Shown: positions 7,117 to 60,542 of the stretch, one piece after another | Layout of the letters: every line of letters begins with the position of its first letter | Position numbering within the stretch: the first letter of the stretch is position 1 | From: Planctomycetia bacterium | GTDB lineage: Bacteria > Planctomycetota > UBA8108 > UBA1146 | Direction of reading: 5' to 3' | Length of the DNA: 64,000 nt | Assembly: GCA_012269595.1 (NCBI GenBank) | Contig: JAAXJX010000011.1 | Span: 68,184 to 132,183 of the forward strand | Notes under the pieces: generated by a model | Seen by the model: the letters and a program-made list of their open reading frames with translations, nothing else | Told to the model about the DNA's origin: nothing | Databases searched by the model: none | Position numbers and translations under genes: made by a program

Positions 7117-8931
7117 TCACTTGACGGGTATTGAAACAGTGCGATTCAATCCCTCGGGCTCAAAGGTGTAGGCAGATTTTCCCTGCTCAAGAACGGTGAT
7201 AACGGGGATTTCTGTGGAATTCCCCAATCCAAAGGTGGCCACTGCTTCGCACTGGCTCAAATAGGAGCGGGTGGTCCCGATCATCTGCCTTTGGACTGAT
7301 TCTCCCTGACGACACTCAATCCAACTGCCGGGCGAGATTCCTTCAGTGCGGATGCGAATCCATTGGTGTCCTGTCCCTTGATCGTTTCGGAGCAGGCGTA
7401 CAGGTTCACCCACCTGGGTCAACAGAAGGTCCAGATCTCCATCCCCGTCGATGTCTGCACTGGCGAGGCCTCGGCCAATCGCCGGAATCGACAGATCACC
7501 GGTCTTGTCGCCAGCAACCTCTACATAGCAACCCGCACCGGGACCACGATTCCAGAAAAGTTGTGCCTGCTGTCGGTACTCTTGGCCCGGTTGAACTGTG
7601 GCAATCTCTTCCTCGAGATGCCCGTTGGCCTGAATCAGATCCTGGCGGCCATCCAGATCGACATCAAAAAAGAGCAGTCCAAAGGAAAGTGCCTTTCGAC
7701 TGGGGGGACCAATCCCCTCGTTCACCGATTCGTCGATAAAAAGCTCTGAAGCGGGCATCGAGCGGTAAAGGCCTGTCATCTCTGCCGAAAAGTTGGCAAC
7801 GGCAATTCCCAGTCCGCCATCATTGCGGTAATCGCAAAGGTCCAGTCCCATCGCTCCTGTTGCAGATCCATTGGCGTCATATGCCAATCCACATTCGACT
7901 CCGACTTCTTCGAATCGGGCTTGCCCGTCGTTTCTGAACACAAAGTTTCGTGTGGTGTCATTGGCGACGATGACGTCGATGTCGCCATCGCGGTCGAAGT
8001 CCGTCGTCAACATGGCAAGAGCTTTGGTCGCCTTGGAGAGATCCGGTGTCTGTAGCCCTGCCTCGATGCTGAAGTCATTAAAGGTACCGGAACCATCGTT
8101 GAGGTGAAGACGACACGGACTTCCCTCGAAGTTGGTGGGGGGGCCATAGGCCCTGCCAACCCCGGTGAGTCGATAATCGACTTCGAGGTCCTTCTCTGGG
8201 GACCATTGAACATACTGACAAACAAAGAGATCCAGATCTCCATCAGCATCCGCATCGAAGAAACCTGCACTGCTCGACCAGGCGTCGGAGCCGCCGGAAA
8301 CACCGGCTTGATCGGCAACACTGAAGTGATCCCCCTGATTCATCAGGAGCAGGTCCGAACCCACCGCCGCGACGAAAACATCCTGATCTCCGTCACCGTC
8401 GACATCACCGACGGCCAACCCTGTGCAGTACGCGTCGATCTCGAGTCGCCATTCCCGGCTGGCTTCGACAAACTGGCCGTTTCCGTCGTTCAGCCACAAT
8501 CGAAGTGTGGAATTCGCAGGTTTTTCGCTGGTCCATTTCCACGGGCGGCCACTGGCGAGAAGGATATCACTGTCCCCATCGGAGTCGACATCCACAAATG
8601 CACAGCCGCTTCCCATCGTTTCGGGGAGCAACTTTTTGCCTCGGGCCCCATCGTCGTGGGTGAAATCGATGCCTGCACTGAGAGTAATATCCTTGAAAGG
8701 GAGAGGGGGAGCACTGACTGTTCCATCATGACTCCTGGGACGGATCGGTACTTCAGGCCCAGATTCGACCGGTTCTGCGGAAGGCTCGTAGTTAGAGAGG
8801 AACCATAACCCGGCTGCGAGAAGAGCGAGGATTCCAAGGAATCGAACACTTTTTTGGAATGCTTGCCCAATGACTTCGTCGTCCTGATTTTCGGGATCAG
8901 GAGAGTCTGGAATATTGGAAGGATCGGTCAT
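7117..8931 (-). CDS. ASPIC/UnbV-domain FG-GAP repeat protein (CRTAC1-like)
   Basis: Multiple FG-GAP calcium-binding repeats (DVDSDGDSDILL, DVDGDGDQDVFV, DADADGDLDLFV, DFDRDGDIDVIV, DIDGDGDLDLLL) and a C-terminal UnbV/ASPIC domain. Its start overlaps the stop of the upstream cytochrome gene (TAATG). Confidence 0.85.
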   Translation of the reverse strand: MTDPSNIPDSPDPENQDDEVIGQAFQKSVRFLGILALLAAGLWFLSNYEPSAEPVESGPEVPIRPRSHDGTVSAPPLPFKDITLSAGIDFTHDDGARGKKLLPETMGSGCAFVDVDSDGDSDILLASGRPWKWTSEKPANSTLRLWLNDGNGQFVEASREWRLEIDAYCTGLAVGDVDGDGDQDVFVAAVGSDLLLMNQGDHFSVADQAGVSGGSDAWSSSAGFFDADADGDLDLFVCQYVQWSPEKDLEVDYRLTGVGRAYGPPTNFEGSPCRLHLNDGSGTFNDFSIEAGLQTPDLSKATKALAMLTTDFDRDGDIDVIVANDTTRNFVFRNDGQARFEEVGVECGLAYDANGSATGAMGLDLCDYRNDGGLGIAVANFSAEMTGLYRSMPASELFIDESVNEGIGPPSRKALSFGLLFFDVDLDGRQDLIQANGHLEEEIATVQPGQEYRQQAQLFWNRGPGAGCYVEVAGDKTGDLSIPAIGRGLASADIDGDGDLDLLLTQVGEPVRLLRNDQGTGHQWIRIRTEGISPGSWIECRQGESVQRQMIGTTRSYLSQCEAVATFGLGNSTEIPVITVLEQGKSAYTFEPEGLNRTVSIPVK

Positions 8932-11759
8932 TACTTCTTGCCCTCTTCTTCACCGGATTCTATCGGCTGAAGAGGGTAAATCACAATCGCTTCGGCTGAG
9001 GCATTTGCGGGTGGATTATTGGCCCGGTGGGCGGAAACGGCAACATCCCGGGCATTGTCGTCAACTTTGTATCGAGAGTGCTCACTTCTGTGGAAATTGG
9101 CCTTGGCTGCATGGTCGACCGAATCGGATGGGGAATCGGCGCCCTGATTTTGATCCAGCGCCAACAGGTCGTGGATTTGGGCCAGGTTCCAATGAGCGGA
9201 GGTATTTTCCGGGTCTTCTACCAATACCTTGTCGAACCAGTTGAGGGCGATCTGGAGATTTTCCGTTTTGCCTTCTTCTCTTTGACGGGCGATGGCAAAG
9301 CAGACTGTTCCCAGTTCATTGAGAAGACGCACGTCTCTGGAAAAATCAAAGCCTCTCTCGGCAGCACCGGGATAGCGGGTTTCGTAGAGGCGCAGAAGGG
9401 TTGTCAGGGCGGCGTCGTAATAACCGTTTTCCCGGTTCACAAGGCTGCCAAACCAATCGAGGCTCCATGGCGGGGGAGGAGGATCGTGTTGAGCTGCTTT
9501 GTCCAGAGACAAGGCCGCTTCATCCAGTCTTCCTGCCTTGATCAGTGCCCTTGCCTTGTTCATGGCACCGTCAGGTCGTCCGAGGCGAGTCACTTCTTCG
9601 AAGGCAGAGATGGCCGTGACCAGCTCTCCTCGAACAGCGCCTTTGGCTCCCTTGCGAAGCATGCCGATTCCATAATCATTCCAGCGCATCCAGGTGGGCT
9701 TGCTCTCTTCGATATCGATCTCGATTTCGGGGCCGCCGATGACAAAGGTCACTTCGTCCTCACCCAATGTCACCACAGGAAGATCATTTCGCTCACCATC
9801 CATGAACAGGCTCAGGAAGTGAGTGTCAAATTTTCTGTAGAGTGCTTTGGCTCGTACTGTCAACTTTGACCCCGGTGCATTCGGAACGTCGAGGCGATAG
9901 TGGAGAGAGTCCGCCGCGCCCGGAGGAATCTGGTGGTTGTAGAGCGCAATAAAGATGTCTTCGACATTGCGTTCGTGGATCCGATTCCCTTCCCGGTCAA
10001 GAACAAGGGCGTTCATCATGTGAGACCAGGGGTCCAGAACTCCCTTTTCATCGAGAAGTCCGCTGGAAGCGATCGGTTCACCGTCCAAAAAGACTTCCAT
10101 TGAGACCCAAGTCTGATTGGAGTCGGCTGTCCCCTCGGTGAAATGGTGACCCATTCCCATCGTTCGCAGGACTGTTTGGACGAGAATGGTCTCGCCAGGC
10201 TCGATTGCAGGAATTCTCGGATGAATCGGGGCCTCAAGGGGAGCATCCACATCGTCTCCACGGCGAATACCGAAGATATCGACGTCGATAGAACCTTCGA
10301 GGAACTTCCGATGCACTTCCAGCGAAGATTCGCTGGTTCCGACCATGGCTCGCATCGCCGTATTGGCTCCCGGGAACAGGTGGTCATGCACAGAAAGGAT
10401 TCCCGTACCGGTGATGTCTTTTGCACCAAAATCGGTACTGGGCATCGCCGGCATGTGACAGCCATTGCAATCGTTCTCAGCCTGGGCGGGGTAATAGAAG
10501 GAAGCCACACCGTGCCCACTGACTCCACTGAGAAGCCACGAATCGTAGTGATTCTGCCCTCGGAGCCATTTGTAATGATTGAGTTCTTCGGGGATATGAA
10601 CCTTGTGACATGAACCGCAGAACTCTGCCTGCTCATGCAAAGGCTTGAGGTAAGTTTTTTTGTGGAACGCAGGCTTGGCCTTGATCAATTGACGATTGAC
10701 CCATTTGAGAAGCGGGTCTTCGCTCATGGCAAACGGGTACAGCTCAGGCTGTCCGATCACATATTCGCCATTTCCTCTGGGACCCGGGACTGACTCAATG
10801 GCATGACAAACGGTGCATGTGATGGCGGCATGGGCTGTGGGGTGGTTGTCCATGTCGAAGTCCGGGTCATCAAATGCACCACTGAAGAATGGAACCGGGT
10901 CATGGCAGCCGGCGCAGAATCGGGAGGCATGGACGTCGCCATCCCTCTCCATGAGGAAGTCACGAGTGTTTTTGACACTCGCCAGATATGCAGGGTTGTT
11001 GAATGAACTGAATCGGTGTGCCGATTCGGACCAACGGGAATGAACGTCTGGGTGGCACTCTCGACAAGAGTCATCCCGCATCAAACGGTGGGCCTCGATG
11101 AACTTGCCATCACTGGTCCGTGCAAGTGATGGCTCAAAATACTGGTCTCCTGCCGCAGGCGTCATTCCGGGTGGGACCGAGTACTGATGCCAGACGAGCA
11201 TCAGGAGAACGAACAAGAGTCCGGCGAAACTCCAGCGATAACTGACTGCCCAGCGGATCGGTACTCCTGCAAGCCTGTGAAGAACAAAGAGCCAAATTGT
11301 AACCAGCGGTGTGGCAACATGAGTGGCATAGAAGATGGTTCTCCAGGCGGGGGACCGGATCTCGAGAATCCCCTCAATCCTGGTCAGTAACACCCCGGAA
11401 ATCAGGAGTAGCAAGCTGGCTATGAAAAGGCCCATACCCGCTTTGACAGCCCGTCTGTTGGGGTGAGACCAAGATCGTTTCAGGTGCCAGAAGCCAAAAA
11501 CCACAAAAGGCAAAATGATCAGTACACCCAGAACCAGATGGACGAGGAACATCCATTGGTAAAAGGAATCCTGAAACTGACTTTTGAGAACCTTTTCAGC
11601 GACCGTGACCGCCAACAGGTAGAAAGAGTTGATTCCCAACAGGGCAAACAGACCAAAGACCGCGGCCAGCCAGGGGCGCAATCCTGAGTGAACGGGGTCC
11701 GGTCGGGAACTCCGTGACTTTCGGCTATTTTGGTCGGGGTTTGTTTCTTGATTGCCCAT
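8931..11759 (-). CDS. Membrane-anchored multihaem c-type cytochrome with a C-terminal TPR domain
   Basis: Five predicted N-terminal TM helices followed by five CXXCH motifs (CRECH, CAGCH, CTVCH, CGSCH, CNGCH) and C-terminal TPR repeats. The ORF track extends it to 11873. I chose the internal ATG at 11759, which leaves a plausible divergent intergenic region; the start is uncertain. Confidence 0.75.
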   Translation of the reverse strand: MGNQETNPDQNSRKSRSSRPDPVHSGLRPWLAAVFGLFALLGINSFYLLAVTVAEKVLKSQFQDSFYQWMFLVHLVLGVLIILPFVVFGFWHLKRSWSHPNRRAVKAGMGLFIASLLLLISGVLLTRIEGILEIRSPAWRTIFYATHVATPLVTIWLFVLHRLAGVPIRWAVSYRWSFAGLLFVLLMLVWHQYSVPPGMTPAAGDQYFEPSLARTSDGKFIEAHRLMRDDSCRECHPDVHSRWSESAHRFSSFNNPAYLASVKNTRDFLMERDGDVHASRFCAGCHDPVPFFSGAFDDPDFDMDNHPTAHAAITCTVCHAIESVPGPRGNGEYVIGQPELYPFAMSEDPLLKWVNRQLIKAKPAFHKKTYLKPLHEQAEFCGSCHKVHIPEELNHYKWLRGQNHYDSWLLSGVSGHGVASFYYPAQAENDCNGCHMPAMPSTDFGAKDITGTGILSVHDHLFPGANTAMRAMVGTSESSLEVHRKFLEGSIDVDIFGIRRGDDVDAPLEAPIHPRIPAIEPGETILVQTVLRTMGMGHHFTEGTADSNQTWVSMEVFLDGEPIASSGLLDEKGVLDPWSHMMNALVLDREGNRIHERNVEDIFIALYNHQIPPGAADSLHYRLDVPNAPGSKLTVRAKALYRKFDTHFLSLFMDGERNDLPVVTLGEDEVTFVIGGPEIEIDIEESKPTWMRWNDYGIGMLRKGAKGAVRGELVTAISAFEEVTRLGRPDGAMNKARALIKAGRLDEAALSLDKAAQHDPPPPPWSLDWFGSLVNRENGYYDAALTTLLRLYETRYPGAAERGFDFSRDVRLLNELGTVCFAIARQREEGKTENLQIALNWFDKVLVEDPENTSAHWNLAQIHDLLALDQNQGADSPSDSVDHAAKANFHRSEHSRYKVDDNARDVAVSAHRANNPPANASAEAIVIYPLQPIESGEEEGKK

Positions 11760-11901
11760 GAAGAAAGTATAACTCCTGCGGTACCGAATGAGAATTCCGG
11801 CAAGTTCTATTTTTGGATTTGGGTGACGGTGAATCAGGTCCAGAATACCGGAATACCGGGGCCGGCGGGGCAAGGGCCGAGGATCATGTCAGGAGTTTCC
11901 C

Positions 11902-12732
11902 ATGACAGCAAAATTACACCTGATGACGAGAGTGGCCCCAGGAGAGAGCCCACAAAAATGGGTCCTTTTGCTGCACGGAATTCTGGGGGCCGGGGGGAAT
12001 TGGGCGGGATTTGCCCGAGATCTGGCCGAAGCCAGGCCTGATCTGGGGGTACTGGTCCCTGATCACAGACTGCATGGTCGATCCGAATCAGGAAGTCCGC
12101 CGGATCAACTGGATTCCTGTATCACCGATCTTGAAGAGATGATGGAGACCTTTGAGGGTGAGATTCATGCGGTGGTGGGGCACTCTTTCGGTTCCAAGAT
12201 TGGCATTCTGCTCGCTCTTCGACAGTCGTCTATTCGTCAGGCGTTTGTACTGGATGCGGACCCGGGACCCTTGTTGATGTCCGGGAAATCCAGAGCGGAT
12301 TTTCAGGTTTTGACGTTGATGGATGCACTTCGGGCAGCACCAGCGGCGTTTGCTTCTCGGGGAGAGTTCGTCGAATACATGGGTAGATTCGGTTTTCGAC
12401 CTGAGATTGCCGGTTGGGTCGGAAAAAACCTTCGCAGGGAGGGCGAAACACTGCACCTGCCACTCGACCTGGACCGTATTGAAAATCTCCTGGTGAGTCA
12501 TCATGAGTTTGACGCATGGCCGTGTCTTTCCCATGAAGGTGTCGAACGAATCGATTTCATCGTGGGGGAGCGATCGAAAGTAGTGGGAGAGTCGACCCGA
12601 TCCCGAATGAGATCTCTGTGCGACAGTGATCGGCTCCGGCATACACTGGAAGTGTTACCGAACGCCGGCCACTGGTTGCACGTGGATCAGCCAAAACTGC
12701 TTTTGCAGTCTCTTTTGAAACGACTGATCTAG
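11902..12732 (+). CDS. Alpha/beta-fold hydrolase
   Basis: HGxxG oxyanion region (LLLHGILGAGGNW) and nucleophile elbow GHSFG; 276 aa. Confidence 0.8.
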   Translation: MTAKLHLMTRVAPGESPQKWVLLLHGILGAGGNWAGFARDLAEARPDLGVLVPDHRLHGRSESGSPPDQLDSCITDLEEMMETFEGEIHAVVGHSFGSKIGILLALRQSSIRQAFVLDADPGPLLMSGKSRADFQVLTLMDALRAAPAAFASRGEFVEYMGRFGFRPEIAGWVGKNLRREGETLHLPLDLDRIENLLVSHHEFDAWPCLSHEGVERIDFIVGERSKVVGESTRSRMRSLCDSDRLRHTLEVLPNAGHWLHVDQPKLLLQSLLKRLI

Positions 12733-12745
12733 ATCTTCATTCTCC

Positions 12746-14089
12746 TCAGGGAGCGAAGTTCCCACTTCCGGAAGTTCTCGAGAGTTCTCCTCCCGGGCCA
12801 AACTTTTCCACCTGTTGTCGGAGCTGATCTCCGGAGGGCACTTTTTCTTCCGGGAAGGGGTGCTCTGGAGTGGACTCGACGTAAAGGCTGGTTGATGGGA
12901 AAGCGAACCCGACTTCCAATTCCTCTGCAAGACGAATCACTTCGAGAAGGAAGCGCTGTTTGACCTGAAGTTCTTCGGTGTAATCCGCAACGATCAAGCG
13001 AACGTTGACGAGGACGTCCAGGCTGGATGCTCCGAAATCCACGAGAGCCGCTCTGACCGTCTCTGTTTCAATCTTCTCCTGAGCCGCTGCGATCGCTTTG
13101 ACGCCTTCACAAAACGCTTCAATTTTGTCTGCGGGGGTTTCGTAGCGGAGACCAACCATGGTTTTGAATCTGCGGTAGTTTCGTTGGCCCATATTGTCGA
13201 TCACGCCGTTGACCAGCTCCGAGTTGGGCACACTGACCAGAGAACTCTCAAAAGTGCGGATCCGGGTGCAACGGAAACCGATCTCCTCGACGACCCCCTG
13301 GATCCCTCCGACCTTGACCCAATCGCCGAGTTGGAAGGGGCGATCGGTGAAAACCGTGATGGAACCAAAAAGATTGGCGAAGGTGTCCTTGGCAGCAAGA
13401 CTGACACCGATACCGAGCACACCGAGACCGGTGACAAGGGGCATCACGTCTTCTCCAGTACTCTGGATCAGGTATATCACTGCTCCAATGGTGACGAGAA
13501 ACTTCAGGCTTTTGCGAATCATGGGGGCCAGCTGGTCGTCCAGTTTGCTTTCAGAGAGACTGGCGGCCTCCTCCATGCGGGCACCGAGAAGATCAACCAG
13601 GCGATAGGCCAAAAGCAGACCGCCGATGGTTGCGAGTGCTCGCACGACCACGTCCATGATGGAAACACCAAATTGTGAAAATTGGAGTGCCGGAGCCAAC
13701 AGGTCGACGGTCAGTGCTGATGCAAACCATCCCAGTGATTTACCGACCGATGTAATCACGGCAGTCGTCTTTTCAGACTGGCCGACTCTTGCCAGGATGG
13801 AATTCAGAATGGAACCACCGATATGCGAGCTGATTTTTTGAATCAGCCAGGCGGCAATGGCGATCACTGCCAGAAGCAACCATTGCCACTGTTCCATAAA
13901 CAGGATGGTTGATCTCATCCCATCGGGGATTCGATCCTGAAGCCACTCAAACCCTGTTTCGGTCACCACCAAAGGGGCCGGGTCAGAGCCGGATTCCTGA
14001 GGCTGTGCCGAGATGGCCATTGGGCAAAGCAACAGAAGTGCCCCAAGGAAAAATGCCTGAAGACGCATCAGCAAACTCTCTTCCCTCAC
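12746..14089 (-). CDS. Mechanosensitive ion channel, MscS family
   Basis: A conserved MscS pore helix and beta domain (...GVLGIGVSLAAKDTFANLFGSITVFTDRPFQLGDWVKVGGIQGVVEEIGFRCTRIRT...), with N-terminal signal and TM segments. Confidence 0.85.
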   Translation of the reverse strand: MREESLLMRLQAFFLGALLLLCPMAISAQPQESGSDPAPLVVTETGFEWLQDRIPDGMRSTILFMEQWQWLLLAVIAIAAWLIQKISSHIGGSILNSILARVGQSEKTTAVITSVGKSLGWFASALTVDLLAPALQFSQFGVSIMDVVVRALATIGGLLLAYRLVDLLGARMEEAASLSESKLDDQLAPMIRKSLKFLVTIGAVIYLIQSTGEDVMPLVTGLGVLGIGVSLAAKDTFANLFGSITVFTDRPFQLGDWVKVGGIQGVVEEIGFRCTRIRTFESSLVSVPNSELVNGVIDNMGQRNYRRFKTMVGLRYETPADKIEAFCEGVKAIAAAQEKIETETVRAALVDFGASSLDVLVNVRLIVADYTEELQVKQRFLLEVIRLAEELEVGFAFPSTSLYVESTPEHPFPEEKVPSGDQLRQQVEKFGPGGELSRTSGSGNFAP

Positions 14090-14118
14090 GCAACTGCGGC
14101 AAAATGCCGGCCGTGCTC

Positions 14119-15270
14119 TCAGGGAAGGAATTTACCCGGATTTTTCAGCTTTTGGGGCAAATATTCTTCAATGACGTAGTTCAGGCCCCACATCGCCAAA
14201 GCCTGTTGTTCGGCACGGACTCCCATCGACAACAATTGCTCAATCGCCGATTTCCACTGCTTCTTGCTCTTGAAGAAGGGGTCATTCTTGAGGGCGTCCT
14301 TGGCACGCTTGATATCGACATCCTTCAAGGGGTGGGTCGGAAGTTCGTAGTCGATGATGTCCTGGGGAGTCACTCCCAGATAGGTGGCATTGGGAACACA
14401 GAAGAAGCGATTGATGTGCGCGGCGTTACCCGATCCGACCTTCAAGGTTCGATAAATGTTGGAGATCCCGTAGGGATCGCAATCGACGAAGGCGTAAACC
14501 GGAATCTTGGCCTGTTCGCTGAGTCGGCGAATGAATCGGCGGGTCGAGCGGGTGGGGACTCCCGCCATATTGACGAGAATGCAATTGGAGGTTTTCCAGA
14601 ACTTGTGACTTTGCAGTCTTTGGAAAACACCTCCGGTTTCGATGGCGAGGATGAACTTGGCGCCGGTTTCAAAACTCAAATGCTCGACGGAAGTGGGAAT
14701 GGAATAGGCGCCACTGCCGAAGCGTGTGCAGTCAATGCGTTCGATCTCTCCGGATTCCAGATCGGGATCGAGGACCACCAGATCCCCAGCCACAGCTCCG
14801 CCATGCTCATCGGGCACAAAGCGCAACTGCTCACGACTGACATCGTCGACTGAGAAGAGCGCCTCGATGTCATCCATGACCGTGTCCGATTCGGTTTGGT
14901 CGTCAAACTTGGCTTCTTCCCAGTTTTTGGATTGGTAATAAACGTCTCGCTTGGTAGCAAAATCGTTGTTGATCACCAGTTCCCGGGAAAGGCCCATCAT
15001 GCGCAGTGTTTGTGCGAATCCCTTGACGGTGTTGACGGTCAGGGTGCGTTCCTTGCGGGCGCGGCCAATTTCGAGGTAACCCTTGCGCTTGTCGTAGGAG
15101 ACGTTGCTGAGACTGCGAACCGGGAAACGCATCAAGGGCTTGCCCTTGCGCTGAATCTTTTTGTAAATGTCATCTGCAGCACTCTCGATGCTGGAGATGG
15201 TCTTCTTGTCTTTTTTGGCGTTTTCCCGGCGGACCTTGTCCATGTATGCCCGGGTGATTTTCTTCGTCAT
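14119..15270 (-). CDS. top6A: DNA topoisomerase VI subunit A (Spo11/Top6A)
   Basis: Catalytic-tyrosine motif KRDVYYQSK in the CAP domain and the Toprim acidic motif AFVDCDPYGISNIYRT. 383 aa, with an AAGGGAG RBS. It starts 10 nt after the top6B stop. Confidence 0.9.
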   Translation of the reverse strand: MTKKITRAYMDKVRRENAKKDKKTISSIESAADDIYKKIQRKGKPLMRFPVRSLSNVSYDKRKGYLEIGRARKERTLTVNTVKGFAQTLRMMGLSRELVINNDFATKRDVYYQSKNWEEAKFDDQTESDTVMDDIEALFSVDDVSREQLRFVPDEHGGAVAGDLVVLDPDLESGEIERIDCTRFGSGAYSIPTSVEHLSFETGAKFILAIETGGVFQRLQSHKFWKTSNCILVNMAGVPTRSTRRFIRRLSEQAKIPVYAFVDCDPYGISNIYRTLKVGSGNAAHINRFFCVPNATYLGVTPQDIIDYELPTHPLKDVDIKRAKDALKNDPFFKSKKQWKSAIEQLLSMGVRAEQQALAMWGLNYVIEEYLPQKLKNPGKFLP

Positions 15271-15280
15271 TCAGTCTCCC

Positions 15281-17119
15281 TTACATCTTCCGGCTTTTTT
15301 CGAGAACATCGGCCAGTTTGGATTCTGCTCCGGTTCTCTGTTTATCGCTCAGCTCCAGAATGTCCTGGAGGGCGATGCCGATCTGGGGAATATACTTTTT
15401 GATGTAATCCTTCTTGCGCTCTGCATCCGCGAGTCGACGTTTCTTGCGCAGGTGGATCGCCAATTTTCGGCCCGCCTCCATGATGGCGAGGCGCATCTCC
15501 TTGAGGATCTCGTCGTATCCGGCGACCGCTTTCTTGCTTTCCGAGGTGAATGGAACCCACACACTCGCAATGTGAACCAGGATCGCCAGTGGACCGGTTG
15601 GCAGTGCTCCCCGTGCCTGTTGGACCTCGTAGTTTTTCCACGGGGTCGAAATGATCGATTGCGTGATGGCGCATGCACCCTGTTCGTATTGCAAGGGAAC
15701 CCGATTGGCGAAGCGGAAAATGCTGGCGAGCTCGTCTCCGGGAAGTTCTCCGCCATAAGCGATCCCCGCCTCTACCTGAAAGGGATTTCCGCGATAGACG
15801 GCAGGTTGACGGGTGACTGTCAGGACCAATTCGGGGTCAAAGTTGCGCCGGAGGGTTTTCGCCATCAAATCTTCTCCGATGGGGGAGAGGCAGTTGGTTG
15901 GCGGCGCCATCATCTTGGTCTGTTCGATGGACTTGTGAAGAATCTTGACATCGGCACTGCTCAGCCTGCGGGGGTGACGATCGGTATCGATGTACTTGCC
16001 CAGTTCTTCGCTTTGCTCACTGACCTTTTTCACCACATTCGGGGTCATTCGACAAAACTCGCTGCACAGGAATCCGCTGACAGTTCTGGAAGAGGTGTCC
16101 TTCATCATTTGCATGAGGATTCCCAGTTCCACTCCGTGTGGATGAGGCAGGATTTCCATGGGGGCTTCCGGAAGTTTCTTTGTCACCCGTTCCCAAATGA
16201 TGGGCGCTTTGTCCACAGGGTTTTTGTACTGGATTTCGACTTGGGGGTTGGCGAGGGAGACCTGTTCCAGGAAAGCATCGATAGAGTGCTTGCCTTTCTT
16301 GTAGGTCCCCTCCAACTCGATATGGATTTCGGTTCCATGGGCCCAATCGACGTCGACTTCCTGCTCTTTTTTGACCACCGGTTGGTTTTTTGCCATGTCG
16401 ATGGCAAGGGTGACCCGGGTGGCGGGTTTTCTTTTGGAGGTTCTGCTGGTGACCACCATCGGTTTACCGGTGGTCAGGTTTCCGTACATGCCTGCAGCAC
16501 TGATCCCGATTCCCTGTTGCCCCCGGGTCTGCTTGCGGGCATGGAACTTGGATCCATAAAGCAGTCGACCAAAAATCTTGGGCAACTGCGCAGGAACGAT
16601 GCCTGGCCCATTATCCCTTACGAGAATGGTGTGTTGTTCCTCGGAGGCCGCCGTGACTTCAACGACAATTGTCGGCAGGTATTCCGCTTCCTCGCAGGCA
16701 TCCAGAGAGTTGTCGACCGCTTCCCTGACGGTAGTCAGGAGAGCTCGCGCCGGGCTGTCAAAACCCAGCAGGTGGCGATTCTTGGCGAAGAACTCACTGA
16801 CGGAGATGTCTTTCTGCTTGGCCGCCAACTGTTCAGCCTTATTGGCAGATGCGAAGTCATCTCCGGAGGTCGCACGAGATTTTTTGGTCTTCTTTTTGGA
16901 TCGGGGAGCGGAGCTCTTGGCGGCTTTGCCCCTGGGGCTTTGACTGAAAAGATCCGCCTGTTCCGGTTTCGATCGGGATCCGGTCTTGCCACCGGAAGAT
17001 CGTTTTTTGGCCGCTTTTTTCGTGGCCTTCTTTTTGGCGACTTTTTTGGCTGCCTTTTTTGTCGTTTTTTTGGTGCTCTTCTTCGCGCTCTTTTTCTTTG
17101 CGCTTTTGGTCGGGGACAA
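15281..17119 (-). CDS. top6B: DNA topoisomerase VI subunit B (GHKL ATPase) with an N-terminal Lys/Ala-rich histone H1-like extension
   Basis: Bergerat-fold N box [16 protein letters not shown]1 box DNGPGI, and downstream transducer-domain regions. The first ~100 aa are [31 protein letters not shown]-type repeats. TTG start preceded by GGAGG. Confidence 0.9.
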
Positions 17120-17225
17120 CCCGCCTCCTCATCCACTCCGCGATGTTCGCGGGCTTTCAACTCTGGCGTGCACGAATCCTAGCCGCTCTTTCCGCAGCAT
17201 CCAGTAACGCTTTGCCGAGAAACGG

Positions 17226-17768
17226 TCAGTCTTCCTCTGCCCAAAAGTCGACTCCGGTTCCCGCCTCGATGGGAGTGGCGAGGGCCACTTTGAGATGGGG
17301 GGGGCGAATATCGAGATGTTCCAGCCTTGAGCGGGGAATCCACTCCAGGTCTTCGGTTGCCTGGACCCCATCGACTCCATGAACAAAGTTCTCACGGGAC
17401 CCCGGCGTAACCTTGCAGCGGTAGATCAGGGCGATCACATGCAGTTCGGGTGGCATCTCGGGAGAAAGGCGTTGGTGTCGGCCCGCGATAAACTCCCGCA
17501 GAAAGGCGGGTTGCAAAGCCTCGATCTCGAGACCGGTCTCTTCTCGTATCTCCCTGCAAAGTGCGGATTCAAGGGTTTCGCCGTGTTCGACATGGCCTCC
17601 CGGCAGGAAATACCAGCATCCATCCTCTGCGGACGAACTGGAGTCCTTTGCCCGCAAAAAGAGGATTTCATCGTCGCGCTCGACGGCAGCCCTGACCGTA
17701 AATCCCGGTTTGCGTTTTCTTGGCTTCTCTGTCACCCATTCCCCCGTCCGAAGGCGATCTAGGCCCAT
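17226..17768 (-). CDS. NUDIX hydrolase
   Basis: Nudix box GGHVEHGETLESALCREIREETGL. Confidence 0.85.
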   Translation of the reverse strand: MGLDRLRTGEWVTEKPRKRKPGFTVRAAVERDDEILFLRAKDSSSSAEDGCWYFLPGGHVEHGETLESALCREIREETGLEIEALQPAFLREFIAGRHQRLSPEMPPELHVIALIYRCKVTPGSRENFVHGVDGVQATEDLEWIPRSRLEHLDIRPPHLKVALATPIEAGTGVDFWAEED

Positions 17769-17858
17769 CTGGAGACCAAGTTATGATAACCTGAGCCCGC
17801 CTGCTACCGATCAGAAGGATCGATGGCACAAGTTTGACGTACGAGAGGACCCTGAAAC

Positions 17859-18911
17859 ATGACCGGTTCACGTCTGCGGATATTGATCGCACTGCTTGCC
17901 TTGCTCCCGGCAAGCTTCCTGATCTCCAGTGATCTGGGAGCCCAATCGCCGGAAGAATTGGAGCGCCGCTGGAAAAAGAAGCAGGAGTCCTCCTTTCTCA
18001 AGGCGGTCAAATGGGAGCGCTCCCTCGACTCTGCGGTGGAAAGAGCGCGCAGGGACAATCTGCCCATCGTGGCCTACTTCACCCGATCCTATGCCCCATG
18101 ACCGCCTTGCACCGCTTTGGAGAGGGGTCCTCTCCAGTCCGATTGGTGGAAGGAAATGGCCGGCAAGGATTTTGTGCCCTACGTCAACATCAGTGCTCGA
18201 CTTCAGGACAAGCCTGATCAGGATCTGCTGAGAGAGATCGGAGCACGATCCTTTCCGACCACGGTGGTGATGGACGCAGACGGTCAGGTGATCTTGCGTA
18301 ATGACACGGCGGGAGCTTTCCGACCGAATGCAGAAAACAGGGTTCGTGGTGCGGTGGAGGTCGCCTCCGAGTTGGTCAAAGCGAGGTCCTGGGTCAAAAA
18401 CAGTGAAGAAGGTTCCGCAGATCAGGCCGCAGCCAAGGCGAGCCTGTTGCTGCTGGAATCGATTATGGATCTGCGCAAATCCACGGAAAAGGAACTGAAG
18501 CAGGCGGCCAAAACCGAAGGAGTCGACAAAAAGTTGTTGGCCCGTTTTGAGCGCTGGAATGCCTATCAGCCTGTGAACCGCCTTTTGCAGGAGTATGTCC
18601 GCAAGGTCAGGGCTCTCGATTCCGAGGACAAGGTCGGGCGCGGGAAGTTGTATCTGGATACTTCCCGGGAGATGCTCGAACTGTATCGGGCGGGGACCCG
18701 TCTCAATGATGCCAGAATCAACATCTTTTCCGATTACTGGCGGCTGGTTTTTGATGGGGCGATCACCGCAAAGGACCTCGCTGCGGCTGAAACAGCATTG
18801 ACGACCTACCGCAGGGCCTACGGATCCCGAGCTGATCTCAAACCCCGGATCAATCTCATGAGTTCCAAACTCGCAGCCCTGAAAGAAGAACTGGAAGTGA
18901 GTCAGCCATGA
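17859..18911 (+). CDS. Secreted thioredoxin-fold protein; candidate selenoprotein with in-frame TGA (Sec) at 18099-18101 giving a UPPC redox motif
   Basis: ORF-track entries 17859..18101 and 18117..18911 share one reading frame, separated only by TGA plus 5 sense codons. The read-through product ...LPIVAYFTRSYAP-U-PPCTALE... aligns with the Trx motif ...vvdFyAdWCgpCk... (UXXC in place of CXXC). Downstream a cis-Pro FPTTVVMDADGQV matches the Trx fold. A stem-loop lies about 17 nt after the TGA. Confidence 0.5.
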
Positions 18912-36010: not shown

Positions 36011-36086
36011 TGGTGGGCGAAGAGGGACTCGAACCCCCGGCATCTTCGGTGTAAACGAAGCGCTCTACCAACTGAGCTATTCGCCC
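36011..36086 (-). tRNA. tRNA-Val (anticodon TAC)
   Basis: The reverse complement GGGCGAATAGCTCAGTTGGTAGAGCGCTTCGTTTACACCGAAG...GGTTCGAGTCC...CGCCCACCA folds as a cloverleaf with anticodon loop TTTACAC. CCA is encoded. Confidence 0.85.
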
Positions 36087-40188: not shown

Positions 40189-40265
40189 ATGGTGGGCGAT
40201 ACTGGACTCGAACCAGTGACCTCATCGATGTGAACGATGCGCTCTAGCCAGCTGAGCTAAACGCC
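40189..40265 (-). tRNA. tRNA-Val (anticodon CAC)
   Basis: The reverse complement GGGCGTTTAGCTCAGCTGGCTAGAGCGCATCGTTCACATCGATG...GGTTCGAGTCCAG...CGCCCACCA folds with anticodon loop TTCACAT. Confidence 0.85.
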
Positions 40266-40279
40266 CCCAAGTTTTAAAG

Positions 40280-40370
40280 TTGGTGCCGAAGAGAGGATTC
40301 GAACCTCCACCCGGTGTGAACCGGACCAGGACCTGAACCTGGCGCGTCTGCCAGTTCCGCCACTTCGGCA
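40280..40370 (-). tRNA. tRNA-Leu (anticodon CAG), class II with a long variable arm
   Basis: The reverse complement GTGCCGAAGTGGCGGAACTGGCAGACGCGCCAGGTTCAGGTCCTGG...GGTTCGAATCC...GGCACCA has anticodon loop TTCAGGT; 91 nt. Confidence 0.85.
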
Positions 40371-41053: not shown

Positions 41054-41406
41054 GGGGGCGAAACGGTTTCGACCGGACGATGGAACGTCGTGTGGCAGGT
41101 GGAGGTTGTCCGGAGGCCTCCTTAAACACCGGCAAAATTTTTGACTGCGAACAACAACTTCGCACTGGCTGCCTAATACTGGCGCCCCTTCCCCCGCGGC
41201 ATGTCCAGGGCCGCGGACGGAGGGCCATTTTTCTGGACTGGCCGAAGAAGACCCTGCCAGTGGTCTTTGAGGCGAGATCGAACTGGCGACCGTGGATCGG
41301 ATCCTGTCCGTTGGAGCTGACCTCGGTTTTAAAGAACGGACTATGCCTGTAGAAGCTCGGCGGGAAACGTTTCGGGACCCGGGTTCGACTCCCGGCGCCT
41401 CCACCA
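41054..41406 (+). ncRNA. ssrA: tmRNA (ssrA)
   Basis: The 5' end GGGGGCGAAACGGTTTCGAC pairs with the 3' end. The 3' T-arm-like GGGTTCGACTCCCGGCGCCTCCACCA ends in CCA. An internal tag-peptide frame ...GCG AAC AAC AAC TTC GCA CTG GCT GCC TAA gives (A)NNNFALAA. It lies immediately downstream of smpB. Confidence 0.85.
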
Positions 41407-49211: not shown

Positions 49212-49288
<77 letters not shown>

Positions 49289-49484: not shown

Positions 49485-50312
49485 GTGAGGATTCCGATGC
49501 GTAAAGCGGTTTGTTCCTGGTCGCTGCAACCCACAGGGGTGCAGGATCTTTTGACCAAAGTTGGTGAAACCGGTGTGAAGGGGATTCAGCTCGCCCTGGA
49601 TCCTTTGCGTTCTTCCACTTCCGTGACCGATGATCTGCAACTGTTGCGGGATTCGGATTTGACCATCGTCAGCGGAATGATGGAGATGGTGGGGGAAGAT
49701 TATTCGACCTTCGAGACGATCAGGGAAACCGGTGGAGTTCGTCCTGATCAAACCTGGGAGTCCAACCTTGAAAATGCCCGTGGGAACGCGGTATTGGCCA
49801 GTGAGTTGGGATTGAGTCTGGTCACTTTTCATGCCGGTTTCATTCCACATGATCCCGCTGACCCGGAGCGACAGCAGATGATGGATCGCCTGGTGATGAT
49901 CGCAGACGTCTTTGCTGAACAGGGTTGTCAGGTTGCGCTGGAGACGGGCCAGGAAAGCGCAGAAACTTTGCTGACCGTCCTTCAGGAAATGAATCACCCG
50001 GGAATCGGAGTCAATTTCGATCCGGCCAACATGATCCTCTACGGTATGGGTGAACCGGTCTCCTCTCTGGATCTCCTTTCTGCCTGGGTTCGGCAAATCC
50101 ACATCAAGGACGCCGACCCCTCTTCAACAGCCGGGACCTGGGGGAGTGAAGTCCCCGTGGGCACGGGAAGTGTCGACTGGGGGCGGTTTTTTGAAGTCGT
50201 CAGGAAGTGCAACCTTGCCGTGGATCTCGTGATTGAACGAGAAGCGGGCGACGATCGTATCGGGGACGTGAAAGTGGCTTCTTCAAGGTTGAGCGAGTGG
50301 CAGGGAATTTGA
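49485..50312 (+). CDS. Sugar phosphate isomerase/epimerase (xylose-isomerase-like TIM barrel), cytoplasmic
   Basis: 275 aa with AP-endonuclease-2/TIM-barrel family features (...VTFHAGF..., ...HIKD...); no signal peptide. Confidence 0.85.
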   Translation: MRIPMRKAVCSWSLQPTGVQDLLTKVGETGVKGIQLALDPLRSSTSVTDDLQLLRDSDLTIVSGMMEMVGEDYSTFETIRETGGVRPDQTWESNLENARGNAVLASELGLSLVTFHAGFIPHDPADPERQQMMDRLVMIADVFAEQGCQVALETGQESAETLLTVLQEMNHPGIGVNFDPANMILYGMGEPVSSLDLLSAWVRQIHIKDADPSSTAGTWGSEVPVGTGSVDWGRFFEVVRKCNLAVDLVIEREAGDDRIGDVKVASSRLSEWQGI

Positions 50313-50323
50313 GGGGCAGGAAG

Positions 50324-51343
50324 ATGGCGACAGGTATTGGAATCATCGGTTTTGGATTTATGGGCAAAACCCATTTGCATGCATGGCTGGATGCCATCGA
50401 AGGCGGTGCCGATGCCAGAGTGGTGGCGATCCAGTGCCCCGAGGATCTCACTTCTGCTTCGGCAGGGAATGTCGAGACGGGAGCGGAAGAGGAAGTGAAT
50501 CCTCTCGACCTGGGGATCACCCATCACCGGGATCTGGATTCTTTTCTGGCGGATTCCCGGGTGGAAGCGGTCAGCCTGTGTACACCCACGGACACCCATG
50601 TGGAGCTGGCCACTCTCGTCTTGCAGGCGGGCAAGGATGTCCTCATCGAAAAGCCGGTTGCCCTCGAGGCTGAAGAGATTGAGAAGCTTGCGAAGGTGGC
50701 TCAAGAGAACGACAGGGAATGCATGCCAGCGATGTGCATGCGTTACTGGCCTGGTTGGTCATGGTTGCGAGAGCAGGTCAAAACCGGTTGTTTGGGCCCG
50801 GTCCACACTGCCCACTTTCAGAGGATTGGTGCCATACCCGGCTGGAGTCAGGATTTTTATCACGATGAATCCCGTTCCGGTGGAGCCCTGACCGATCTTC
50901 ATATTCATGACGTGGATTTCATTCTTTCCACTTTCGGATCTCCTGCGACGGTGACGACCAGTGGTAACCGCAATCAGATGATGACAACGTACGCCTACCC
51001 TGAAGGTCCCTCTTCTGTCACAGCGGAGGGTGCGTGGTATCCCGCGGCCAGTTATCCCTTTCAAATGCGCTATCGGGTTTCCTTTGCTGATGGGGTCGCA
51101 GATTACGACCTTGCACGGGAGGGACGGGAGTTGCTTCTTTATCAGGGAGATTCGGTGGAGGAGATCGAACTGACTCCGACCGGTGGATATCAGTTGGAGA
51201 TCGAGCACTTTCTGGCTCTGGTCAGAGGGGAGTCCCCAACACCTGCTCCGACCTTGGCGGAGGCGGCAAATGTGGCACGGTGGATTCAGGCGGAGGCCCG
51301 AAGTCTCTCCAGTGGCCTGGCGACAGAAAGAGATCCCTCCTGA
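50324..51343 (+). CDS. Gfo/Idh/MocA-family NAD(P)-dependent oxidoreductase (no signal peptide)
   Basis: Rossmann motif IGIIGFGFMGKTH and an EKP motif (VLIEKPVA). Start at the ATG with a GAGGGG...GAAG RBS; the ORF track starts at 50297 (GTG). Confidence 0.85.
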   Translation: MATGIGIIGFGFMGKTHLHAWLDAIEGGADARVVAIQCPEDLTSASAGNVETGAEEEVNPLDLGITHHRDLDSFLADSRVEAVSLCTPTDTHVELATLVLQAGKDVLIEKPVALEAEEIEKLAKVAQENDRECMPAMCMRYWPGWSWLREQVKTGCLGPVHTAHFQRIGAIPGWSQDFYHDESRSGGALTDLHIHDVDFILSTFGSPATVTTSGNRNQMMTTYAYPEGPSSVTAEGAWYPAASYPFQMRYRVSFADGVADYDLAREGRELLLYQGDSVEEIELTPTGGYQLEIEHFLALVRGESPTPAPTLAEAANVARWIQAEARSLSSGLATERDPS

Positions 51344-52935: not shown

Positions 52936-53640
52936 CTAAAGTTCTTTAATGGTGATATTACGGAACTTTAGGGGCGTTCCATGGCTTTGAAGTTCTATGG
53001 GACCGCGGATGGGGAGCGGCTCGTTCCTCCTCCAATAGTTTTCCAGGGGAGTGTCTTTTACAACTAACCTGTCATTCAAGTATACGGTGACGCGATCCGC
53101 CTTCATCAGGATGCGGAAGTGGTTCCAATCCCCAAGGGGTGAATCAGCCACTTCCAGAGGGTTCGCCCCCCCTTTTTGATTGTTGAAGAGTCCTCCGGAG
53201 CCGACTGGGTTTTTCAGGTGATCCCAGATCTGGACCTGCGGGCAACCCCTCAAGTAGACCCCGCTGTCACCTCCCGGGGTGATCTGCCACTCCATTTGCA
53301 ACTCAAAATCTCCATATTCCTTTTGAGTCACCAGATGGCTGCCTTTGCCGTCGAAGCACAGGACTCCGTCCTCCACTTTCCAGTGCCGGCGCATCTTTTC
53401 ATTCGCTTCGTGTTGGAGCTGTGTTTTCTCTGCGGCGCCCATGTTCTGTAACTGATAGGGGTTTGCAACCAGCCCCTGCCATCCATTCAGGGAGACTCCG
53501 TCGAAGAGAGAGATCTCCCGGGAGTGGGTTTCAGGGCCAATTGAGGCGATTCCGGAGCAGCCTGCGATCAGTGCAGGCAGGATCAGTGCTGGAAGGATGA
53601 AACACAGAGGGGTCCTCAGGGTGAGTAATCGGGTCTTCAT
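52936..53640 (-). CDS. DUF1080 (3-keto-disaccharide hydrolase / LamG-like) lipoprotein
   Basis: Lipobox LIAGCSG. DUF1080 pattern (FDGVSLNGWQG ... VEDGVL ... YGDFELQMEWQITPGGDSGVYLR ... GPIELQSHG). Confidence 0.85.
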   Translation of the reverse strand: MKTRLLTLRTPLCFILPALILPALIAGCSGIASIGPETHSREISLFDGVSLNGWQGLVANPYQLQNMGAAEKTQLQHEANEKMRRHWKVEDGVLCFDGKGSHLVTQKEYGDFELQMEWQITPGGDSGVYLRGCPQVQIWDHLKNPVGSGGLFNNQKGGANPLEVADSPLGDWNHFRILMKADRVTVYLNDRLVVKDTPLENYWRRNEPLPIRGPIELQSHGTPLKFRNITIKEL

Positions 53641-53845
53641 CGGTCATTTCCTTCCGTTCATGGGTTCAGGGGTCGGTCATAGCCTCGGAAGATCACAGAC
53701 CTTACGATCTTTTCCCTGTTGATCCGCCATGGAGTCGAAGCTGGATGGGGTTCTGGCAGGCCAAATCGGGCCTGGTTCGCATTTTTCAGTCGAGACCCGT
53801 CGGAGTCTGCCTCGGTTGACGACCTCTGTCACAGGAAGGGTAACC

Positions 53846-55198
53846 GTGACTCAGCCCCTCGATAAAGTTCTGAATTTCAAATTGTCGCTGATGATGTTTC
53901 TCCAGTATGCGATCTGGGGGGCATGGCTGCCGCTGTTGTACCCCTATCTCAAGAATCACATGAAGTTTGCCGACGGAGACATTGGCAACATGTTCGCGGT
54001 GGGTGCCGTCGGTGCGATTCTGGCTCCCTTTATCGCCGGTCAGATCGCGGATCGATTCTTTCGGACGGAGCATTTCCTGGCACTCAGCCATCTGGCCGGT
54101 GCTGCGGTGGTTTGGCAGTTGGCTTCCATCGAGCCCGGCGAGGGGGCTGTGAACCAATTCCTGATCTTCAGCCTGATCTACAGTTTGATCTATTCACCAA
54201 CTCTGTCGTTGACGAATTCCCTGAGTTTTCATCATCTTCCCGATCGGGATCGCGACTTTGGTCGTGTTCGGGTATGGGGCACGGTGGGGTGGATCGCAGT
54301 TGGAATCATCATCGGCCAACATCTTCTCAAAAGTTATGCTGGGGGAGATTTTGCCAATGCGGCGAGTCCCGAGGTTTATGCGGGCTACGCTGATGCGTTC
54401 AGACTGTCAGCCATCATCGGTGCAGGAATGGGAATCTTCTGTTTTCTGCTTCCTGCCACGCCGCCCGGAGGCAAAGCGGAGGACAACGCAACCTTTGCCG
54501 CTCTGGGTGAGGTCAAGCGCCAGCCTTTGCTGACCCTTTTTGCTCTTGCGGTGCCGATCTCCTGTATCCATCAGTTCTACTTTGTTCACACATCCGGATT
54601 CCTGGGCACACTGCAAACGCAGTTGAATGACGCCGATCTCGCGAACTCCATCAATACCCTGTTTGGTATCGGTGGCGGAGGCCTGATGACGGTGGGTCAA
54701 ATGAGTGAGATTCTGGTTCTCGCGATGATTCCCCTGCTGGCCAGCAAGTTTTCGCGGAAACAACTGCTGCTCATGGGATTGATCGCCTATGCCTTGCGCA
54801 TGGCCATCTTCGCTTATGCCCCGGGTTGGCTCGGTGAATCTGCCATGGGGCTGGTACTAGTGGGAGTGGCTCTGCACGGATTCTGTTTCGGCTGCTTCAT
54901 CTTTGTCGCCTTCATGATCGTCGATGAAGAGTGCCGGATGGACATCCGTGCCAGCGCACAGAGTCTCTTTAATCTGGTGATTGTCGGAATCGGCATCATC
55001 GTGGGCAGCAAGATCGCCACAAGCGTCTCTGTTTGGGCGAATGACACCAGTGTGATCACTGAGGGGACGCCCTGGCATTTGCCTTATGAGCGTCTCTTCT
55101 CGATTCCGATGTGGGCGAGTGTGATCTGTATTGGAATCCTGCTCTTGTGCTACCCCTCTGGATCCAACTCCGACAACGAAGAAAAAACGGCCTCATGA
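53846..55198 (+). CDS. MFS transporter, nucleoside:H+ symporter (NHS) family-like
   Basis: 12-TM protein whose N-terminus ([23 protein letters not shown]) resembles NupG/XapB-type transporters. Start set at the GTG with an AGGAAGGG RBS; the ORF track starts at 53729. Confidence 0.75.
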
Positions 55199-56163
55199 AC
55201 GACTCCCTTGAATCCATCGATCGCAGGAAATTTCTGTCCCTTGCCGGTGCCGGTTTGGCCGCTGGATTATCCGGTTGTGGCGGATTGAGTGTGGGAGGCT
55301 ATCAGTTGATTCCTGGACCTCAACCCCCGCAGACATTCGACATCTCTCTGGCGGAGTGGTCTTTGCACCGAACTCTTCGCAAGGGCGAGATGACGAACCT
55401 CGATTTTCCCCGGGTCACCCGGGAGAAGTTTGGCCTCGATGCGGTGGAGTACGTCAACAGTTTCTTCAAGGACAAGGCCCGAGATGAAGTCTACCTCAAG
55501 GATCTTCGACAGCGCTGTGAAGACCATGGAGTCAAAAGCCTCCTGATCATGTGCGATGGCGAAGGAAATTTGGGAGACCCGGACGACGCGGCTCGCTCAC
55601 GGGCCATCGAAAATCATCATCGCTGGATCGATGCCGCGAAGTTTCTCGGTTGTCACTCCATCCGCGTCAATGCCGCGAGCTCCGGCAGTTACGAGGAGCA
55701 GATGCGACTTGCAGCGGACGGTCTGTCCCGGTTGACCGAATACGGTGCTTCCCAGGGACTGAATGTCATCGTTGAAAATCATGGCGGACTTTCTTCGAAT
55801 GGGGCATGGCTCGCTGGAGTCATGAAGATGGTGAACCATCCCCGATGTGGAACGCTGCCCGATTTCGGCAATTTCAACCTCGGCAACGGAAAGACCTACG
55901 ACCGTTATCAGGGGATTGAGGAATTGATGCCCTTTGCCAAAGCGGTCAGTGCAAAGAGTCACGAGTTTGATGAGAATGGAAACGAAGTTCACACGGATTA
56001 TCGAAGAATGATGAGACTCGTCCGTGATGCCGGATACCAGGGCTACGTCGGCATTGAATTTGAAGGCCCCGGTGATGAAGCCGAAGGCATTCTTGCGACC
56101 AAGAGACTTCTCGAAAGGGAACGCGATCGCTGGTGGCAAGATGATGAAATCAAGAAATCCTGA
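55195..56163 (+). CDS. Sugar phosphate isomerase/epimerase (xylose-isomerase-like TIM barrel) with a Tat signal
   Basis: Twin-arginine signal [22 protein letters not shown] and the TIM-barrel family fold. ATGA overlap with the transporter stop. Confidence 0.85.
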
Positions 56164-56188
56164 ATTGAAAAGCAGAGAGGAACCTGCA

Positions 56189-57529: not shown

Positions 57530-57532
57530 GGG

Positions 57533-58459: not shown

Positions 58460-58505
58460 CCGACGAGAGAAACCTATCGGGGAAAGGATCCCCACTGGAG
58501 GAAAC

Positions 58506-59735: not shown

Positions 59736-59736
59736 T

Positions 59737-60510: not shown

Positions 60511-60542
60511 ACAGATCAAAAACGCTCTTCGAAGGAGGAACG

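Follow-up and report, generated by a model that had tools for sequence, protein, structure and literature searches.

Topoisomerase VI in Bacteria

DNA topoisomerase VI (topo VI), a type IIB enzyme made of A and B subunits (Top6A and Top6B), has been recorded in a number of bacteria as well as in archaea. The present analysis concerns a topo VI operon, top6B-top6A, carried by a 64,000-nucleotide stretch of contig JAAXJX010000011.1 (assembly GCA_012269595.1, Planctomycetia bacterium), the whole of which is referred to here as the window. The operon very probably encodes a functional, chromosomally fixed A2B2 topo VI of an uncultured marine lineage of Planctomycetota. The B subunit bears a long polybasic N-terminal tail that includes a candidate motif for binding the β sliding clamp (DnaN).

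Topo VI was listed for three bacteria by Forterre and Gadelle (2009; PMC2647321), who deemed these clear cases of lateral transfer and held that topo VI and topo IV seldom cross domains owing to their domain-specific partners. In a later survey, the enzyme was found in 17 bacterial families, five of them planctomycete, and one of the bacterial clusters adjoined Methanococcales (Allen and Maxwell, 2024; PMC11302465). Carriers outside the proteobacteria and the terrabacteria, including members of the Planctomycetes-Verrucomicrobia-Chlamydiae (PVC) group, were reported to have gyrase and to lack topo IV, and a decatenase role was proposed for bacterial topo VI (PMC11302465). The same authors mention, as unpublished data, complementation of an E. 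coli parE(ts) mutant by the topo VI of M. mazei.

The enzyme of the window is the same two-subunit topo VI as that described by Allen and Maxwell (2024), from the same phylum and with the same affinity to Methanococcales, and with a B subunit devoid of the immunoglobulin (Ig)-like C-terminal domain. Its host, an uncultured marine clade, falls outside the 17 families listed in PMC11302465. All domains and catalytic motifs are shared with the archaeal enzymes (M. mazei 2Q2E/9O0G, S. shibatae 2ZBK, M. jannaschii 1D3Y), from which the present one differs by its bacterial host and by a polybasic Top6B tail of 94 amino acids (aa); the C-terminal Ig-like domain of M. mazei Top6B is missing from the window protein. 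Topo IV (ParC/ParE), the usual bacterial decatenase, likely has the same role, unlinking replicated chromosomes and relaxing supercoils (to judge from PMC11302465), but as a type IIA enzyme it is of an unrelated subfamily, with another cleavage stagger and other domains, and stands outside the topo VI family. Topo VIII and Mini-A, found in some Planctomycetes, share the type IIB catalytic domains (PMC7671362); these are single fused polypeptides or A-only proteins located on plasmids or integrated elements, whereas the window has two genes in a conserved chromosomal neighbourhood.

Since topo VI has already been published from bacteria, planctomycetes included, and the protein itself is named in GenBank, the identification given below is correct but not new. 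It adds one further uncultured lineage to a documented phenomenon.

The top6B-top6A Operon and Its Products

The two genes are encoded on the minus strand and, according to the list of open reading frames (ORFs), together extend exactly over positions 14119-17119 of the window. The genes, their signals and the domains of their products are as follows:

15281..17119, minus strand: top6B, topo VI B subunit, 612 aa with a TTG start (ORF with NCBIfam, Pfam, PDB and Foldseek matches)
14119..15270, minus strand: top6A, topo VI A subunit, 383 aa with an ATG start (Pfam and PDB matches)
15271..15280, minus strand: spacer between top6B and top6A, GGGAGACTGA, 10 nucleotides (nt), containing the top6A ribosome-binding site GGGAG (direct reading)
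17124..17130, minus strand: Shine-Dalgarno sequence GAGGAGG of top6B, 4 nt upstream of the TTG start (direct reading)
16361..16747, minus strand: GHKL (Bergerat) ATPase domain of Top6B, aa 125-253 (PF02518, PF13589)
15413..15904, minus strand: transducer domain of Top6B, aa 406-569, with WKNY at 494-497 and SESK at 526-529 (PF09239, 3.8e-58)
14935..14949, minus strand: RDVYY of Top6A, aa 108-112, catalytic tyrosine site in the 5Y-CAP (winged-helix) domain (PF04406)
14146..14655, minus strand: Toprim domain of Top6A, aa 206-375 (PF21180, over 1-170 of 170 profile positions)

By direct reading of the strand, the TAA stop of top6B occupies 15283..15281 and the ATG of top6A begins at 15270. Separate A and B genes are therefore encoded together, on the same strand and 10 nt apart, as befits a holoenzyme, and in related loci a top6B-like ORF is present on the same strand wherever the contig extends far enough upstream of top6A. 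An earlier, sequence-only reading of the window had proposed this pair, preceded by good ribosome-binding sites, and both ORFs were found where it placed them, each with such a site. No σ70-like promoter was detected in a scan of 12600..18000, and the terminator-like hairpins returned by that scan were weak, many of them on the non-coding strand. A 671-aa antisense ORF (15167..17182, plus strand) spans all of top6B and looks like a shadow ORF of its coding strand.

Top6B was assigned by the NCBIfam models NF003218 (645 bits, cutoff 274; model positions 4-505 of 539) and TIGR01052 (513 bits, cutoff 381), together with PF09239 and the GHKL ATPase families in Pfam. Among PDB sequences it matched M. 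mazei Top6B (2q2e_B) at 3.2e-137. The AlphaFold2 model of the protein, with a mean predicted local distance difference test score (pLDDT) of 79 and a confident core, found M. mazei topo VI-B as its top Foldseek match (E 1.3e-53, TM 0.70, 498 columns, 45% identity), and the ATPase domains of gyrase B and ParE appeared as distant matches only. The N box (EAVDNSLDA, 133-141), the G1 box (DNGPGI, 169-174) and the G2 box (GQQGIG, 200-205) of the GHKL domain are all present, with motif residues invariant in an alignment of 40 sequences. An H2TH domain, judged through the full-length profile and fold alignments that cover it, and a transducer whose SESK motif provides the switch lysine complete the subunit.

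Top6A matched PF21180 (5.8e-60), PF04406 (1.3e-15) and PF20768 (3.5e-15) in Pfam and, among PDB sequences, M. jannaschii Top6A (1d3y_A, 1.6e-106), with 54% identity over 306 aa. The RDVYY of its 5Y-CAP domain aligns with REAYY of the M. jannaschii protein, and the second tyrosine is presumably the catalytic one, after Tyr103 of that enzyme. The metal site of the Toprim domain comprises the glutamate E211 in AIETGG (209-214) and the DxD motif in the form DCD (263-265). The scores obtained for the two proteins are well above anything that chance would give. The profile searches on which the sequence-only reading had staked its identification assign them securely to Top6A/Spo11 and Top6B, and each of the motifs that it named (RDVYY, DxD, N box, DNGPGI) is in the translated proteins.

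The exact Top6A protein is deposited in GenBank as "DNA topoisomerase VI [Planctomycetota bacterium]", and other records misname the same protein "DNA topoisomerase IV subunit A" (e.g., MBA4683728.1). Five of the six NCBIfam Top6A models (NF003332, NF003333, NF003334, NF003336, and NF003337) have this title too, which looks like a propagating naming error.

Eukaryotic Spo11/TopoVIB-like complexes illustrate that a type IIB scaffold can lose its topoisomerase activity (PMC11302465), and the genes might accordingly be a decaying relic or encode a Spo11-like DNA breaker without strand passage. This is very improbable for the present locus, in which the N box, G1, G2, the switch lysine, WKxY, the Toprim acidic residues and the tyrosine motif are all intact, the ATPase motifs do not vary among the 40 homologues, and Top6A is the most conserved gene of its neighbourhood. 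The genes are intact, as had been proposed, and strongly constrained across relatives.

A Conserved Locus of a Bacterial Chromosome

The host is a bacterium, as the sequence-only reading had assumed. A tmRNA is encoded on the same contig at 41054..41406 of the window (plus strand; 160 bits with Rfam, not called by ARAGORN), and Top6A is 99% identical to a protein on contigs of marine Planctomycetota metagenome-assembled genomes (MAGs); JACETR01, CAJXMG01 and JAPOLY01 are near-identical MAGs. Genes of planctomycete type are frequent in the window and include DUF1501/DUF1800, FG-GAP/ASPIC, many GFO/IDH/MocA oxidoreductases, and a multihaem cytochrome with tetratricopeptide repeats (TPR). Four tRNAs (Val-TAC, Val-CAC, Leu-CAG, and Asp-GTC) are located at 36011..36086 and 40190..40369 (minus strand) and at 49212..49288 (plus strand).

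The 54% identity of Top6A to the M. jannaschii protein, along with the fact that all close relatives come from MAGs, could raise the suspicion of archaeal contamination or of a chimeric assembly. That explanation is extremely improbable, given the bacteria-specific tmRNA on the contig and the typical planctomycete neighbours; moreover, the same junctions are seen in assemblies that different studies obtained independently, and exact copies of the protein lie on many contigs, the longest of 1.18 Mb.

At least 484 loci coding for close relatives were confirmed in species-representative genomes by a single pattern scan; they belong to bacterial groups that include Planctomycetota, Myxococcota, Acidobacteriota and Eisenbacteria, and in the last three and other groups Top6A identity was 73-80%. 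The statement of the sequence-only reading that topo VI is only sporadic in bacteria was therefore understated.

In about 19 related species the gene order arginase, hypothetical protein, NUDIX, top6B, top6A, MscS, α/β-hydrolase, cytochrome, FG-GAP is largely kept, each neighbour being found in 13-18 of the loci L001-L020 (a set that includes short loci). The identity of the flanking proteins falls to 45-69% across these species, as against 79-93% for Top6A. In locus L008, for example, Top6A is 89% identical to that of the window, the stretch aa 95-260 of Top6B (the first 166 residues of its core) 82%, and the neighbours 47-69%. The GC content of the locus is average for the window. The kept gene order, the divergence of the neighbours, the high identity of Top6A and the average GC content together indicate a stable, strongly constrained chromosomal locus.

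Type IIB enzymes do occur on plasmids and integrated elements of bacteria, including Planctomycetes (PMC7671362), and the pair might be viewed as a recently acquired mobile set of the Topo VIII or Mini-A type, or as part of an island, rather than as housekeeping genes. Such an origin is highly unlikely: the subunits are two separate proteins with their best matches to topo VI models and not to the fused Topo VIII, no integrase or plasmid gene lies nearby, the GC content does not deviate, and the same flanking genes have been kept in some 19 species in spite of their divergence. The topo VI operon is neither an island nor contamination.

As to its history, the genes would derive from an ancient transfer out of a euryarchaeon near Methanococcales, with vertical inheritance in this lineage since; the 54% identity to M. 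jannaschii Top6A fits the published bacterial cluster adjoining Methanococcales.

Some of the related loci call for comment on their records. L015 (QNYK01000089.1), labelled Bacillota, shows the same gene order and 87% Top6A identity to the Planctomycetota MAGs, on account of which the label is probably a binning or labelling error. L020 and L021 both belong to MAG CAZSDP01, where the top6A region is on two contigs whose neighbouring proteins give identical matches, which points to a duplicated assembly or a strain mixture rather than to two loci.

The Polybasic N-terminal Tail of Top6B

The sequence-only reading did not notice that Top6B begins with a lysine-rich extension of about 94 aa:

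16838..17119, minus strand: Top6B N-terminal tail, aa 1-94, rich in K, A and S, with 34 K+R against 4 D+E, predicted disordered

The pLDDT is about 40 over residues 1-92, and no other K-rich stretch occurs among the window's 111 ORFs of 150 aa or more. PDB chains (from their residues 3-6) and profiles built on archaeal proteins align only from residue 94-100 of the query onward. In a search of representatives clustered at 50% identity, the archaeal-like Top6B proteins had tails of at most 20 aa, the tail-less ones (at most 48% identity) including Aenigmarchaeota, Thermoplasmata, and Methanolinea; representatives with at least 50% identity that match from the N-terminus of the core mostly had tails of 54-142 aa. 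The bacterial clade is merged there into few entries, many of them long or split, and this search was used only for the absence of the tail in archaeal-like relatives. Many of the representatives (P0241, P0246, P0248, P0283, P0301, and others) have lengths of 1000-1570 aa and align in two or three pieces, perhaps on account of inteins or fusions. In P0241 and P0242, among others, the N-terminus is likewise extended and basic.

Near relatives (L001-L006) retain both the TTG start and the initial residues of the tail, and in all of L001-L020 the frame runs open into the core despite changes in length, tails of 75-132 aa occurring in related species. The first in-frame ATG of top6B falls inside the ATPase domain. 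The kept frame, the TTG start with its Shine-Dalgarno sequence and the late position of the first ATG suggest that the tail is translated. In several relatives, a Met stands at the start of the core or close to it, and there some gene callers begin the protein, giving products of 515-517 aa.

Such tails are not confined to the planctomycetes. In many Myxococcota (L022-L080, labelled Myxococcota and "Deltaproteobacteria"), long N-terminal poly-K/R/A tails are found on both Top6A and Top6B (e.g., MAARKKK...). The polybasic tail probably gives the enzyme a non-specific affinity for DNA.

A Candidate Sliding-Clamp Motif in the Tail

Bacterial proteins that bind the β sliding clamp carry a short motif, defined as Qφx[L/M][F/L] or Qφx[L/M]x[F/L] (PMC11139829) and published also in the form QL[S/D]LF. 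Known examples are QADMF (internal) and QVELEF in Pol III α, QLSLPL in Hda, and QLVLGL in Pol IV. The Top6B tail of the window contains a pentapeptide that fits the first of these definitions:

16946..16960, minus strand: QADLF, aa 54-58 of Top6B, candidate β sliding-clamp-binding motif (fits Qφx[L/M][F/L])

In the alignment of the fast-changing tails, QADLF is the only conserved island. Of the 19 tails from the planctomycete lineage, 18 have the pattern Q..LF, and in loci L001-L016 the motif holds the only Phe of the tail and the only Leu besides the TTG-encoded start residue; the window tail has a second Phe near the core. The island differs between phyla, with at least four clades showing different canonical variants. 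In Planctomycetota it reads QADLF (the window and close relatives), QASLF, QGGLF, QLDLF or QLSLF; in Acidobacteriota, QIELPL or QFELPL, comparable to the QLSLPL of Hda; in Eisenbacteria and their relatives, QLEVDF or QIEVDF, comparable to the QVELEF of Pol III α; and in two Myxococcota it is QLVLGL, identical to the motif of Pol IV.

Under the strict published definition, 21 of 65 species tails contain a motif, against a mean of 0.42 (maximum 4) in shuffled tails and one match with the reversed pattern; one of the 21, that of L077, comes from a long upstream ORF that is spurious, and is probably a false match. With a relaxed pattern, matches were obtained in 32 of the 65 tails, against a shuffled mean of 0.33 (maximum 3) and none for the reversed pattern. 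The motif matches a published pattern and lies in a disordered segment; planctomycete orthologues conserve it, but it is not universal across phyla. In these features it resembles the motifs of the established clamp partners Hda, Pol III α, and Pol IV, which display the same short pattern in a disordered segment and a similar range of variants across species.

At the extreme N-terminus of Top6B, seven species (L025, L028, L030, L033, L048, L062, and L068) have in place of the motif another short sequence, EQ[QE]x-F-x-F (e.g., SEQQSFGFR), for which shuffled tails give a mean of 0.01 matches. This sequence may represent one more variant of the clamp motif or something else.

The tail could instead be only a non-specific polycationic DNA-binding arm, its QxxLF island binding some other partner or folding back on the enzyme. 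Such an arm, for which the extra DNA-binding parts of other topoisomerases are a parallel, would strengthen binding to DNA or to DNA crossings. Many Myxococcota A and B tails are pure K/R/A repeats with no motif, so that a basic tail can exist without one, and no topoisomerase appears among the clamp partners in a 2024 review of the β clamp or in the list of a 2022 review. This explanation does not account for an island that is the sole conserved feature of otherwise fast-changing tails, nor for its forms in different phyla, each of which is a known clamp-binding sequence; binding to another partner should not yield this particular repertoire. The arm alone is a substantial possibility, at somewhat below an even chance.

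Several points weigh against docking on the clamp. The relaxed hexapeptide pattern is also found in the folded Top6B cores (97 of 117), and it is therefore informative only in the hydrophobic-poor tails, for which reason the test was redone with the strict published definition. QGGLF and QLEVDF fall outside that definition. The patterns were chosen after the tails had been seen and the species are related, so the counts of 21 and 32 among the 65 tails are not independent. About half of the species tails have no such motif, mostly those of Myxococcota with plain poly-K/R/A tails, and in species with a motif-free B tail no clamp motif was found on Top6A, which carried further poly-K/R/A tails only. 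In addition, an in-frame TTG at Leu98 (16826..16828), just past the start of the conserved core, could give rise to a tail-less Top6B isoform. Taken with the conservation of the island and its canonical variants, these points leave QADLF as a candidate by which the tail might dock topo VI on DnaN, a binding to which we give, from the sequences, just under an even chance.

Literature searches found no paper connecting topo VI with the bacterial clamp and none on the N-terminal tail of Top6B. Text searches of PMC11302465 turned up nothing on a tail or disordered region of bacterial Top6B, nor on lysine or a sliding-clamp motif in it.

Proposed Role of the Enzyme

By homology with the archaeal enzyme, ATP binding would make the two B subunits close their GHKL gate around the DNA duplex to be transported, and the transducer would relay this closure to the A dimer. 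There, the tyrosine of RDVYY and the Mg2+-binding Toprim site (E211, DCD) would cut the gate duplex, let the other duplex pass and reseal the break. Gated strand passage of this kind implies an enzyme that would decatenate and relax DNA, and with high confidence the A2B2 complex can be expected to be active in the same manner as its archaeal counterpart.

In the cell, topo VI would take over the job of topo IV, the unlinking of daughter chromosomes, and most likely replaces it as the decatenase. Three considerations call for caution here. Among the ORFs of at least 600 aa and the annotated ORFs of the 64-kb window there is no gyrase or topo IV gene; as the search covered the window only, the replacement of topo IV leans on the literature about other planctomycetes; and literature searches found no biochemistry of any bacterial topo VI.

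The tail would be a bacterial addition to this machinery. Top6B would have gained its disordered polybasic N-terminus in bacteria, acquiring affinity for DNA, and QADLF would then dock the enzyme on DnaN, at or behind the replication forks. That topo VI, after its transfer from archaea, was joined to the replisome through a disordered polybasic Top6B tail bearing a clamp motif is a possibility that falls slightly short of being probable.

Other Genes of the Window

On the minus strand at 7117..11873, two adjoining genes encode a 980-aa protein, which combines a cytochrome c554-like multihaem region with C-terminal TPR repeats, and a 604-aa FG-GAP/ASPIC protein, a pair that is kept beside the topo VI locus in 13-15 related planctomycete loci. 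Farther along, at 56024..61820 (plus strand) and also at 50297..51343, there is a series of GFO/IDH/MocA-type oxidoreductases, one of which has a twin-arginine translocation (TAT) signal. A 3-keto-disaccharide hydrolase (52936..53640) and a nucleoside-permease-like transporter of the major facilitator superfamily (53729..55198) are encoded near this series, and the region may be a sugar-oxidation cluster.

Implications of a Possible Clamp-Docked Topoisomerase

If docking on the clamp proves true, the planctomycete enzyme would be the first type II topoisomerase attached directly to the bacterial sliding clamp, and a concrete case of a foreign DNA enzyme gaining host-specific partners. An acquired clamp motif would tell where the enzyme acts, namely at the fork, on precatenanes, and would explain how an archaeal enzyme was fitted to the bacterial replisome. 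A clamp-docked topo VI would also represent a new protein class in the interactome of the β clamp, which is itself a drug target.

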